Assembly: GCA_051866635.1 (NCBI GenBank)
Contig: JBJDXJ010000052.1
Span: forward strand, 14,744-78,743
From: Clostridia bacterium
GTDB taxonomy: Bacteria > Bacillota > Clostridia > UMGS1883
Length of the DNA stretch: 64,000 nt
Reading direction: 5' to 3'
In this document: positions 29,385-35,620 of the stretch, one piece after another
How positions within the stretch are numbered: the stretch's first letter is position 1
Layout: each line of letters opens with the position of its first letter
The notes under the pieces: generated by a model
The model's database searches: none
Seen by the model: only the letters and a program-made list of their open reading frames with translations
Told to the model about the DNA's origin: nothing
Program-made: the position numbers and the translations under genes

Positions 29385-29461
29385 TGTCGATATAGCTCAG
29401 CAGGATAGAGCGACCGCCTCCTAAGCGGTAGGTCGGAGGTTCGAATCCTCTTATCGACGCC
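29385..29461 (+). tRNA. tRNA-Arg (anticodon CCU)
   Basis: Cloverleaf folded by hand: acceptor GTCGATA/TATCGAC, D-stem GCTC/GAGC, anticodon stem ACCGC/GCGGT with loop CTCCTAA, T-stem GGAGG/CCTCT with TTCGAAT loop, encoded CCA. Confidence 0.85.
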
Positions 29462-29462
29462 A

Positions 29463-32349: not shown

Positions 32350-32952
32350 ATGGAGAATAATTTTATAAGTCTACAGGGTGTAGTTGAAGGTGATGTTGAA
32401 TACAGCCATAATGTTCAGGAAGAAGAATTTTATAAATTCATGCTGAATGTATCCCGTCTTTCAGGGGTTATAGATTCACTTCCAATAACAATTTCAAAGA
32501 AGTTACTTTCGGAGAACGCAATAAAAAGCGGTGACAATATTTCTGTAACGGGGCAGCTACGAAGCTATAACAAATATTCTGATAACCGTACAAGACTTAT
32601 ACTTACAGCCTTTGCCAAAACAATAGACGAAGAAAAGAATGAAGAAGAAAATCCCAATAATGTGGTTTTAAACGGATATGTCTGCAAGACACCTACCTAC
32701 AGAAAAACTCCCTTCGGGCGTGAAATCACCGATGTAATTATTGCAGTTAACCGTGCATTTAACCGTTCAGACTACATTCCGACTATTTGTTGGGGAAAAA
32801 ACGCACTTTTCTGCCGTGATTTGCCGGTGGGAACAAATGTGCTTATAAAAGGAAGACTTCAATCCCGTGAATACACAAAACGCAACGGCGATGAGTATTC
32901 CATAAGGACGGCATACGAAGTATCTGTGGGAGAAATTGAAGAAATTTCATGA
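32350..32952 (+). CDS. tandem OB-fold, SSB-like protein
   Basis: Two internally similar halves, each with an SSB-like pattern (N.V.L.G.V...G..V...G.L.S..Y). No acidic C-terminal tail. Confidence 0.4.
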   Translation: MENNFISLQGVVEGDVEYSHNVQEEEFYKFMLNVSRLSGVIDSLPITISKKLLSENAIKSGDNISVTGQLRSYNKYSDNRTRLILTAFAKTIDEEKNEEENPNNVVLNGYVCKTPTYRKTPFGREITDVIIAVNRAFNRSDYIPTICWGKNALFCRDLPVGTNVLIKGRLQSREYTKRNGDEYSIRTAYEVSVGEIEEIS

Positions 32953-33016
32953 TTATAGTTGCAAGTTTGTTAAAAATATAGTATAATCACCTAAGAGAAA
33001 CTCAGTGAGGTGTGCT

Positions 33017-33433
33017 ATGAGAATTATAGGACTTGACTACGGCGAAGCAAGAATAGGGGTTGCGGTGAGCGATATTCTTGAAACAATTGCAAATCCCCTT
33101 GATACAATAAGCGAGAAAGACCGTGAAAAACAGCTTGAAAAGGTTATAAAGGTTATTGAACGTGAAGGGGTAGAAAAAATAGTTGTAGGTCTTCCTAAAC
33201 GTATGGACGGAACTTTGGGACACAGAGCTGAGTACACAAAGGAATTTGCCGAGGAGCTAAGCTTAAGATGCAATCTTCCTCTTATTATGTGGGATGAAAG
33301 GCTGTCATCTTCAGAAGCTCACAAAGTCCTTGACCAAGGTGGTGTAGGCGGAAAAAAGCGAAAGACCAAGGTTGATAAGATTGCTGCGGTTTTGATTTTG
33401 CAGACTTATCTTGACAGCCAAATGAGAATATGA
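33017..33433 (+). CDS. ruvX: Holliday-junction-resolvase-like pre-16S rRNA nuclease YqgF/RuvX
   Basis: MRIIGLDYGEARIGVAVSD N-terminus is the YqgF signature. Confidence 0.85.
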   Translation: MRIIGLDYGEARIGVAVSDILETIANPLDTISEKDREKQLEKVIKVIEREGVEKIVVGLPKRMDGTLGHRAEYTKEFAEELSLRCNLPLIMWDERLSSSEAHKVLDQGGVGGKKRKTKVDKIAAVLILQTYLDSQMRI

Positions 33434-33448
33434 AAGGATGTATTTAAA

Positions 33449-33706
33449 ATGGAAAACAATAAGGATGAAATACTTGACGCTATGGAAGATTTTGACGTGC
33501 TTGACGAAATCGAATTTGAAGGAGCAACTTATTTTGCCATGACACCTATTGAAGGGAAAGAGGCTGAGGGCGAAGTATTTATTATGAAACTTGTTGATAT
33601 TGACGGTGCAGAAATGCTTGAATCTGTTGAAGACGATGAATTGTTTGACAAGGTTTACAATATTTTCAAAGAAAATAATGCTGACGAATTTGACTTTTTA
33701 GATTGA
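33449..33706 (+). CDS. DUF1292 family protein
   Basis: Acidic ~85-aa protein with the FEGATYFAMTPIEG motif, at the conserved position downstream of yqgF. Confidence 0.7.
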   Translation: MENNKDEILDAMEDFDVLDEIEFEGATYFAMTPIEGKEAEGEVFIMKLVDIDGAEMLESVEDDELFDKVYNIFKENNADEFDFLD

Positions 33707-33731
33707 TTTTTTTGTTGTTATAGGTTATAAT
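33703..33731 (+). promoter_or_regulatory. promoter TTGATT-N17-TATAAT
   Basis: Drives the ~235-nt leader before the 33973 CDS. Confidence 0.5.
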
Positions 33732-33737
33732 AAAAGA

Positions 33738-33972
33738 GAAGTAGAAAATAGCGAAATACATTGCTCTGCGGTGTGCGTATATATCGGGGCACTATTTGAA
33801 CCAACACATTTTTTTAGGGAGAATGACCTCGGATCGCTGCGTGTAAGCTCTCCCTCGCTTTGCGACGAAGAGAGAAACCCATAACCGGTTCGGAATTCAC
33901 CCACCTGCTTTGCAGGTTTCAAATAAGCTTCATTTACGGCATTGTGGGGCACTTTTTATAGGAGGAGTTATC
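33738..33972 (+). ncRNA. candidate structured 5' leader / cis-regulatory RNA (family unassigned)
   Basis: 230 nt of non-coding sequence with several stems: agggagaa...ctctccct, ctctccctcgc/gcgacgaagagag, acctgctttgcaggt, and ggggcac repeated at both ends. No ORF. Confidence 0.3.
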
Positions 33973-34395
33973 ATGAGTAAGATTATATGCAATAAGTGCG
34001 GCGAAAAGATTAAAATTAACTCTGTTTTTTTGGAAACGGTGGGTTGTGAAAATTGCGGCAACCGTATTGATTTTTCGACTCTTGATGCTCTCAGCGGTGT
34101 GAGACAGGCTCTTATGTTAGGTGTATCAATTTTTCTTGGAATAGTGGGGCTTGTTTTTATGATTGCAAATGATATCAGCTTCAGCCAACTTCCGGCTGTT
34201 TTTGCAGATTTAAGTGCCGGGGCGGCAGGTATGCTTTTAATTTTCCTTTGCATAGTTGTACTTTTGGTAGGTCAACTGGAGAAGATGATTGGATGCCGTG
34301 TTTATGAAGATTGGCGTAAAAGGGAAGAAGAGCTTGAAAAAATTGCAGAAAAAAAGCGTGCTGAGGATGCAGCACGTGAGGCGGAAGAAAAGTAA
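33973..34395 (+). CDS. zinc-ribbon membrane protein (CxxC...CxxC, two TM helices, charged coiled C-terminus)
   Basis: ATG at 33973 with a ggagga RBS. CNKCG...CENCG motif and two hydrophobic helices. Confidence 0.55.
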   Translation: MSKIICNKCGEKIKINSVFLETVGCENCGNRIDFSTLDALSGVRQALMLGVSIFLGIVGLVFMIANDISFSQLPAVFADLSAGAAGMLLIFLCIVVLLVGQLEKMIGCRVYEDWRKREEELEKIAEKKRAEDAAREAEEK

Positions 34396-34534: not shown

Positions 34535-35620
34535 ATGAAAAAACATATTTTTAGAACTGTGATGATATTGGTTTTATTATGCATATGTATGTGCATATAC
34601 TATTATTTTGATGTTATGGATACATATGTTGTAGCCACTGACATATATCTTGAAAGCAAGCCTGTGTGCAGAAATATCATTTATTTAACGGACACTTCTT
34701 GCTATAAAATTTACAACAGTGCTCTTTACAAGGATGATAAATTTATCACAGCTTTGAATAAGGACAGTTGTGGCATATTGAAAGATAAGCTTGGGCTGTA
34801 TGTTTCCTACGGTGAAAGATTATACAAAATAAATGAGTATAACGGAGAAAGAGAAGTATTCTTTGATAAAATTTACCCCTTGTTTATGGATGAATCATAT
34901 ATTTTTGCAATTTCTTCAGAAAATGCTGATTTTTTAAAAATAGATCGTAAGAATAAGTCTTTAGAAAATATTACTGAAATTTTTTCTGTTGAAAATAATA
35001 CCCCTGTAGCTTTAAAAACGCATGATGGCTACTCTTATGTGTTTTTAAGTGATAATGGTAATTCAACAGTAACTTCTGTTATAAACTCGCAGGGTACGGT
35101 GTTATTCACGGATAGAAATCAGCAATTGTCTGAAAATACGGTATTGTATTATGACGAAAATAAAGCCATATATACCGATATAGATAGGGTACATATCAAG
35201 GTATTTGATTTCGAGACCCAAAAAACAAAGCAATTTGAAATCAAAGAAGGTTATTGTTACAGACCGGGAAGAACTTTTGTTCACAACAATCTCATTTATT
35301 TTGCTTTGGAGAAGTATACACCCTCTACAAAAAGAACAGAACGTTATCATGACAATGATATTATCTGCATGTTTAATGTTGATATGTTGACAAGTGAAAT
35401 TGTTTTTGAAACGCCCGACCATATCGTTGGATTTGACACGAGCTTAGCATGGACATATGATGGATTTCACAAAATAGAAAAAGTGAATTATTTAAAAAAT
35501 AGAGTACTAAATAGGGAATTCATTAAAAATAGATTTGAAAGTATTGAATTTCATACTCAGAACGGGCATGTGATAGTCACAAATCCTATGTCAAATGAAA
35601 TAGTATCAATTTTCAAGTAA
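34535..35620 (+). CDS. hypothetical membrane-anchored protein with Tyr/Asn-rich beta-rich ectodomain (DUF5050-like?)
   Basis: N-terminal TM MILVLLCICMCIYYYF. Noticeably AT-rich coding sequence. No confident family. Confidence 0.4.
   Translation: MKKHIFRTVMILVLLCICMCIYYYFDVMDTYVVATDIYLESKPVCRNIIYLTDTSCYKIYNSALYKDDKFITALNKDSCGILKDKLGLYVSYGERLYKINEYNGEREVFFDKIYPLFMDESYIFAISSENADFLKIDRKNKSLENITEIFSVENNTPVALKTHDGYSYVFLSDNGNSTVTSVINSQGTVLFTDRNQQLSENTVLYYDENKAIYTDIDRVHIKVFDFETQKTKQFEIKEGYCYRPGRTFVHNNLIYFALEKYTPSTKRTERYHDNDIICMFNVDMLTSEIVFETPDHIVGFDTSLAWTYDGFHKIEKVNYLKNRVLNREFIKNRFESIEFHTQNGHVIVTNPMSNEIVSIFK

Follow-up and report, generated by a model that had tools for sequence, protein, structure and literature searches.

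Gene content of the ruvX locus

The window, i.e., the whole 64-kb stretch of DNA that was analyzed, carries ruvX (positions 33017-33433; RuvX, Pfam PF03652) followed by a DUF1292 gene (33449-33706; Pfam PF06949), and the latter lies between ruvX and a 195-nt stretch of the + strand (33760-33954) that is assigned below to a 6S RNA (ssrS) gene on the basis of Rfam family RF00013, the predicted fold, orthologues and covariation. Directly 3' of this RNA is a + strand gene for a 140-aa zinc-ribbon membrane protein (33973-34395), whose ribosome-binding site, AGGAGG (33960-33965, +), starts 6 nt past the RNA and whose ATG start codon occupies 33973-33975 (+). The protein has a CxxC...CxxC zinc ribbon at its N terminus, a charged tail at its C terminus and predicted membrane segments; searches of Pfam and NCBIfam gave no significant family match, the similarity to TIGR04104 and DUF5817 being sub-threshold.

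Immediately upstream of ruvX, in an arrangement conserved in loci L001-L008 of the relatives described below, is a gene for a 200-aa SSB-family protein (32350-32952), which matches NCBIfam PRK05813 over its full length with 268 bits, with the Pfam SSB domain restricted to residues 103-196 in its C-terminal half. A 361-aa ORF (34535-35620), flanked by the zinc-ribbon gene and an MreB-like gene, has no NCBIfam match and a sub-threshold Pfam match to CATSPERE_Ig-like (20.5 bits versus a cut-off of 28.3). This ORF, which has no tblastn counterpart among 80 related loci and lies in a region of low GC content (0.25-0.33 versus approximately 0.40 in the adjoining sequence), looks like a strain-specific insertion. 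A tRNA-Arg gene with anticodon CCT is located at 29386-29462 on the + strand.

A full-length match to 6S RNA between DUF1292 and the zinc-ribbon gene

The whole window was scanned against Rfam at gathering thresholds, and positions 33600-34100 were scanned on both strands at a permissive threshold of E ≤ 1. RF00013 (6S/SsrS) matched 33760-33954 on the + strand only, with 94.5 bits, about twice the family gathering score of 46.4, and E = 1.3e-17 for the whole window, and the alignment covers the full model (positions 1-187 of 187). The permissive scan of 33600-34100 detected no family besides 6S on either strand, and, tRNA excepted, the window contains at gathering threshold neither a second 6S copy nor any other noncoding RNA family. 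In a preliminary description of this DNA, the stretch had been called an unassigned, structured, noncoding RNA on the + strand, for which an Rfam scan was proposed as a check. The scan proved decisive, with 6S alone recovered when both strands were run. The RNA is thus no longer unassigned, while its noncoding nature on the + strand is borne out by the RF00013 match, by the strand-specific fold reported below and by the lack of a coding signal.

The same description had viewed the element as riboswitch-like or as an sRNA, controlling the downstream CxxC membrane protein. As a cis-acting leader, it would respond to a ligand or protein and govern transcription read-through or translation of the gene at 33973-34395. 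The RBS located 6 nt past the RNA fits such a leader; however, the permissive scan (E ≤ 1) yielded no riboswitch or leader family, as opposed to 6S at twice its gathering score.

The RNA folds into a rod with a large central bubble

With RNAfold, the + strand gave a minimum free energy (MFE) of -60.9 kcal/mol with a z-score of -2.42, which is only moderate, and 2 of 200 shuffles were as stable; the reverse complement was unremarkable (z = -0.84). Stability relative to shuffled controls, another check proposed at the outset, therefore distinguishes the + strand and not the - strand.

The MFE and centroid structures of the 195-nt RNA both consist of a closing stem, an internal stem, a central bubble and an apical arm, which is the canonical rod of 6S RNA. 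In the MFE structure, the 5' strand of the closing stem (33762-33782, +) pairs with 33932-33951, corresponding to nucleotides 3-23 and 173-192 of the RNA. The internal, P2-like stem, whose 5' strand (33786-33800, +) includes UAUUUGAA and pairs with 33918-33931, is formed in part by the UAUUUGAA/UUCAAAUA pairing and contains the perfect 8-nt complement TATTTGAA/TTCAAATA. Next come the 16 unpaired nucleotides of the 5' side of the central bubble, CCAACACAUUUUUUUA (33801-33816, +), and then the apical arm (33817-33902, +), which opens with GGG/CCC; here GGGAGAAU pairs with AUUCACCC, followed by more helices and a terminal hairpin, CUCUC..CGCUUUGCG..GAGAG. The stem ctctccctcgc/gcgacgaagagag noted in the preliminary description is real and is this apical hairpin, with CTCTC..CGC and GCG..GAGAG nested.

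Both the MFE and the centroid structure form a 6-bp hairpin, ACCUGC-UUU-GCAGGU (33903-33917, +), in the 3' part of the central bubble. It is the perfect palindrome that had been pointed out as acctgctttgcaggt, equivalent to ACCTGCTTTGCAGGT, and its counterpart in Firmicutes 6S-1-type RNAs is the 3'-CB hairpin (PMC8876501). As to a leader function, the fold of 33739-33972 offers no terminator/antiterminator alternative and no meaningful sequestration of the RBS.

6S RNA is syntenic with ruvX in close relatives and shows covariation

Relatives were retrieved as 80 genomic loci with RuvX as the probe, which is independent of the RNA. RuvX is 51-88% identical in the 12 closest loci (L001-L012), all of which are from Oscillospiraceae or unclassified Clostridia MAGs. 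A full-length 6S match of 85-96 bits was present in the same orientation, approximately 300-430 nt downstream of ruvX, in 11 of the 11 close relatives with sequence there; L008 was excluded from this count because its contig edge is reached before the 6S position. The genes ruvX and DUF1292 lie upstream of 6S in L001-L007, L009 and L010, and the zinc-ribbon gene is kept right after 6S in L001-L007, with 56-80% identity. By comparison, 6S was found within 3 kb of ruvX at no locus among the remaining 68, which are more distant and come from Lachnospiraceae, Bacilli, Syntrophales and further groups, indicating that the 6S-ruvX synteny is lineage-specific; a literature search found no published link between 6S RNA and ruvX. 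Unrelated to the 6S finding, TwoAYGGAY RNA (RF01731) was seen no more than about 1-2 kb from ruvX both in a Lachnospira locus (L015, 2046-2207, -; 102.9 bits) and in a Lachnospiraceae locus (L060, 1-106, +; 50.8 bits).

The alignment of the window with its 11 relatives has a mean column identity of 78%. The CCAACAC motif in the 5' bubble is invariant in 12 of 12 sequences, and CACCCACCUGC is invariant or nearly so. Both the rod and the 3'-bubble hairpin reappear in the RNAalifold consensus, where compensatory changes are seen in 13 pairs. When the MFE structure was laid on the alignment, 86% of cells were paired, compared to 39-46% with the partners slid by 1-3 columns; both-side changes occurred in 21 of 65 pairs versus 5-12 in the slid controls, and the covariation score was 0.227 versus a maximum of 0.104 in these controls and was reached by 0 of 500 shuffles, figures to be read with the relatedness of the 12 sequences and the derivation of the tested structure from the window sequence itself in mind. 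Compensatory changes are distributed along the rod: 5 pairs in the closing stem (helix 1; 19 pairs, 85% of cells paired), 3 in the internal stem (helix 2; 86% paired), and, within the apical arm (helices 3-7), 7 of 8 pairs in helix 4 and 3 of 5 in helix 6. The CCUGC/GCAGG stem of the 3'-bubble hairpin is kept in all 12 sequences with invariant arms and hence without covariation; in L009 and L010 this hairpin has a 4-nt loop, which MAFFT misaligned. Conservation and covariation across Clostridia, which the preliminary description had suggested examining, are thus evident in the close relatives, with 21 compensatory pairs, and 6S is absent near the distant ruvX genes.

These data also bear on coding potential. 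It had been stated that the approximately 230 nt contain no ORF; three mechanical ORFs do exist, at 33771-33884 (+, 37 aa), 33860-33961 (+, 33 aa) and 33725-33952 (-, 75 aa), but none has a Pfam match, and no open frame, in any of the frames, is conserved across the relatives. The longest of them might be taken for a minus-strand protein-coding gene, given its 75 open codons and GTG start. Besides the missing Pfam match, the longest stop-free runs in relatives are 21-57 codons in inconsistent frames, the substitutions preserve base pairs and not codons, and the 6S model on the opposite strand explains the region fully. A protein-coding gene on this strand is scarcely conceivable and was rejected, in agreement with the earlier view that this ORF is probably spurious.

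Altogether, the Rfam match, the rod with its large central bubble and the syntenic conservation with covariation identify 33760-33954 (+), with near certainty, as the 6S RNA (SsrS) gene of an uncultured Oscillospiraceae-type Clostridia bacterium.

An alternative pairing and a repeated heptamer

The preliminary description listed two further features. The first, a stem agggagaa/ctctccct, exists as a perfect 7-nt complement, AGGGAGA/TCTCCCT (33816-33822 with 33849-33855), but it is not part of the canonical 6S fold; it competes with canonical helices 3 and 6, as each of its arms pairs elsewhere in the conserved structure. We had expected this pairing to break down in the relatives, yet its pairability is largely maintained: in the 12-sequence alignment, AGGGAGA/UCUCCCU can still pair in 82% of cells, and both-side changes are seen at 3 of its pairs, with weak covariation. 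The paired fraction was reached by 7 of 500 shuffles, while the other measures were not distinctive. On this weak evidence, the pairing may reflect either a real alternative conformer or simply strands that are rich in purines and in pyrimidines.

The second, the heptamer GGGGCAC near both ends of the element, is present at 33786 and 33946. This repeat appears coincidental, since the window holds 4 occurrences where 2.8 are expected and L009-L012 have not kept the repeat; GGGGCAC was accordingly rejected as a functional motif.

Promoters and terminators suggest operon-embedded biogenesis

The preliminary description had proposed a promoter, TTGATT-N17-TATAAT, and a candidate of this sigma-A type is indeed present at 33703-33731 (+), with 10 of 12 consensus matches and with its -35 hexamer overlapping the DUF1292 stop codon. 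Among the relatives, it is common only to L002. This putative promoter implies a start at approximately 33738-33740, so that some 20 nt of leader would precede the modeled 5' end of 6S. Promoter-like sites are not enriched in the region (4 found versus 2.7 expected from shuffles). In L001 and L003-L007, no promoter-like site with a start preceding the RNA was found within approximately 130 nt upstream of 6S by the consensus scan, which can miss noncanonical promoters inside the DUF1292 gene end; in L001 and L003, the spacer between the DUF1292 stop codon and 6S is only some 15-30 nt. A second candidate, TTGCAA-N17-TATAAT (32959-32987, +), lies approximately 30 nt upstream of ruvX, and its equivalent is found in L001-L007, approximately 729-762 nt upstream of 6S. 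In the window, the stretch from this site to 6S contains no terminator.

No terminator was found in the window between DUF1292 and 6S or between 6S and the zinc-ribbon gene. In the window and in L001-L007, the zinc-ribbon gene starts 18-50 nt past 6S without an intervening terminator, and the 65 nt downstream of the RNA fold no more strongly than -7 kcal/mol. In L009-L012, 6S is followed after 8-12 nt by a strong intrinsic terminator of -23 to -32 kcal/mol with a U-run (4037-4058 in L009, 3976-4003 in L010, 3965-3993 in L011 and 3962-3991 in L012), and the zinc-ribbon gene was not detected in these loci. The free-standing 6S gene of L009-L012 versus the apparently operon-embedded one of the window's clade is a clade-level switch.

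These neighborhoods complete the case regarding a leader. The missing terminator before the zinc-ribbon gene and the adjacency of RNA and gene maintained in L001-L007 would suit one. However, since the RNA of L009-L012 has its own terminator and no zinc-ribbon gene beside it, it is an autonomous unit and not an expression platform, and what is conserved in it, namely the closing stem, the bubble and the predicted pRNA template, is characteristic of 6S. With 6S as the only Rfam family, no obligate gene association and no expression platform, a riboswitch or other cis-regulatory leader is highly improbable and was rejected. That 6S adjoins the CxxC gene is a matter of gene order at the level of the clade, and by analogy with known 6S RNAs, the RNA would act in trans on RNA polymerase. 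Of the preliminary interpretation as a whole, then, the noncoding RNA and the spurious opposite ORF stand, and the control of the membrane protein gene by a riboswitch or leader does not.

For the 6S RNA itself, the sequence suggests a ruvX-DUF1292-6S(-zinc-ribbon) transcription unit. Transcription could proceed from the 33703-33731 promoter, by read-through from the ruvX promoter, or both; read-through from the ruvX operon with subsequent processing is plausible because the ruvX promoter is conserved and no terminator separates DUF1292 from 6S. In E. coli, ssrS is co-transcribed with the downstream ygfA, and Chae et al. (2011) reportedly link Rho-dependent termination of ssrS to 3' processing of 6S and to ygfA expression. 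Likewise, the 3' end of the RNA here may undergo trimming, or transcription may continue into the zinc-ribbon gene. The 5' end would be trimmed, as RNase J1 does for B. subtilis pre-6S-1 (PMC10578484).

A stronger form of this model holds that 6S arises mainly from within a polycistronic ruvX-DUF1292-6S-zinc-ribbon transcript, out of which RNases excise it, with the local promoter minor or nonfunctional and with downstream expression coupled to 3' processing. The short DUF1292-6S spacers of L001 and L003, the lack of a detected proximal promoter in L001 and L003-L007, the conserved promoter upstream of ruvX, the absence of terminators flanking 6S in the window and the ssrS-ygfA precedent all point this way, whereas the good proximal promoter of the window and L002, together with the noncanonical sites that the scan could overlook, point the other way. 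This model, which would refine the 6S explanation and leave the identity of the RNA unchanged, is possible, although we do not favor it.

A predicted pRNA template and a proposed mechanism

The Rfam alignment places the predicted pRNA template at 33792-33805 (+), read from C33805 towards lower coordinates. The predicted pRNA, 5'-GUUGGUUCAAAUAG-3', would start opposite C33805, i.e., C46 of the RNA, which we take to be equivalent to the U44 start of E. coli 6S. In B. subtilis 6S-1, pRNA starts at C40 (PMC8876501). Firmicutes hallmarks are a template A adjacent to the start site and, in the pRNA itself, a GG dinucleotide as well as AA at 9/10 (PMC8414754); in the sequence examined here, template A33806 lies just 3' of the start C, GG is at 4/5 and AA is at 9/10.

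6S RNA is an open-promoter mimic that binds the housekeeping holoenzyme and is freed by pRNA synthesis on the 5' bubble (PMC8876501, PMC10578484, PMC8414754). For 33760-33954, the function is proposed by homology. If it works as E. coli 6S and B. subtilis 6S-1 do, the rod and bubble of this RNA would mimic an open promoter and fill the active-site cleft of the sigma-A RNA polymerase holoenzyme, damping sigma-A-dependent transcription, chiefly in stationary phase. When nucleotides are plentiful, the polymerase would copy the 5' bubble from C33805 into the short pRNA, and this synthesis would unwind the P2-like UAUUUGAA/UUCAAAUA helix so that the RNA refolds and the polymerase is released.

Implications for annotation and 6S biogenesis

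The element is an ordinary, already described 6S RNA and no new riboswitch, and any Rfam-based annotation would label 33760-33954 as 6S RNA. For annotation, the 195-nt stretch should be labeled ssrS and the 75-aa minus-strand ORF removed. No new question about 6S biology is raised by these results; only the apparent placement of 6S within an operon, ruvX-DUF1292-6S-zinc-ribbon gene, is mildly notable. The absence of a terminator around 6S, and of a proximal promoter in most relatives, hints at operon-embedded biogenesis, which would be a modest variation on the E. coli ssrS-ygfA arrangement.

RuvX/YqgF has been reported as an RNase-H-fold nuclease in pre-16S rRNA maturation. One could imagine 6S as an internal module of a conserved ruvX-DUF1292-ssrS-zinc-ribbon operon, excised conceivably by RuvX/YqgF itself, with 3' processing setting the expression of the membrane protein, or else the AGGGAGA/UCUCCCU pairing as a functional second conformer; we consider these more elaborate ideas improbable.

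Comparison with known 6S RNAs

Like E. coli 6S (ssrS), the RNA belongs to RF00013 and aligns over the full length of the model, and, as with ssrS-ygfA, a same-strand protein gene follows closely with no intervening intrinsic terminator, although the downstream gene here is unrelated to ygfA. The first nucleotide of E. coli pRNA is an A opposite U44, whereas the pRNA predicted here starts with G opposite C. In free E. coli 6S, the 3' bubble lacks structure, and only upon pRNA synthesis does a 9-bp hairpin arise (PMC8876501), unlike the RNA described here, in which a 6-bp 3'-bubble hairpin is preformed. This preformed hairpin places the RNA with the B. subtilis 6S-1 type and not with the E. coli type.

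Consistent with this placement, the RNA resembles B. subtilis 6S-1 (bsrA) and the Firmicutes 6S-1 type in its length of approximately 190 nt and its rod-bubble-rod architecture, and in having a small hairpin preformed in the 3' central bubble while the 5' bubble is open (PMC8876501). The predicted pRNA start, G opposite a C that is followed by the conserved A, and the GG and the AA at 9/10 also agree with Firmicutes 6S-1 (PMC8414754), except that GG is at pRNA positions 4/5 here and at 5/6 there. The implied 5' leader of about 10-20 nt recalls B. subtilis pre-6S-1, which RNase J1 trims (PMC10578484). Unlike in B. subtilis 6S-1, no central-bubble-collapse helix was predicted by RNAfold when the template was blocked in silico; just the P2-like stem was lost.

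Genomic context also sets the RNA apart from the B. subtilis 6S-1 type, with its gene located between ruvX-DUF1292 and a zinc-ribbon membrane protein gene. In Lactobacillales, 6S adjoins rarA/uspA, which is likewise a lineage-specific synteny (PMC8414754), and ruvX-DUF1292-6S may serve as a landmark for 6S in uncultured Oscillospiraceae as rarA/uspA does in lactic acid bacteria. Within Clostridia, the 6S RNA of C. acetobutylicum (sCAC1377), which belongs to another family than the bacterium studied here, shares with the RNA described here the conserved asymmetric bubble flanked by G-C pairs; it is highly expressed, and northern blots reveal several processed forms of it (PMC3879012).
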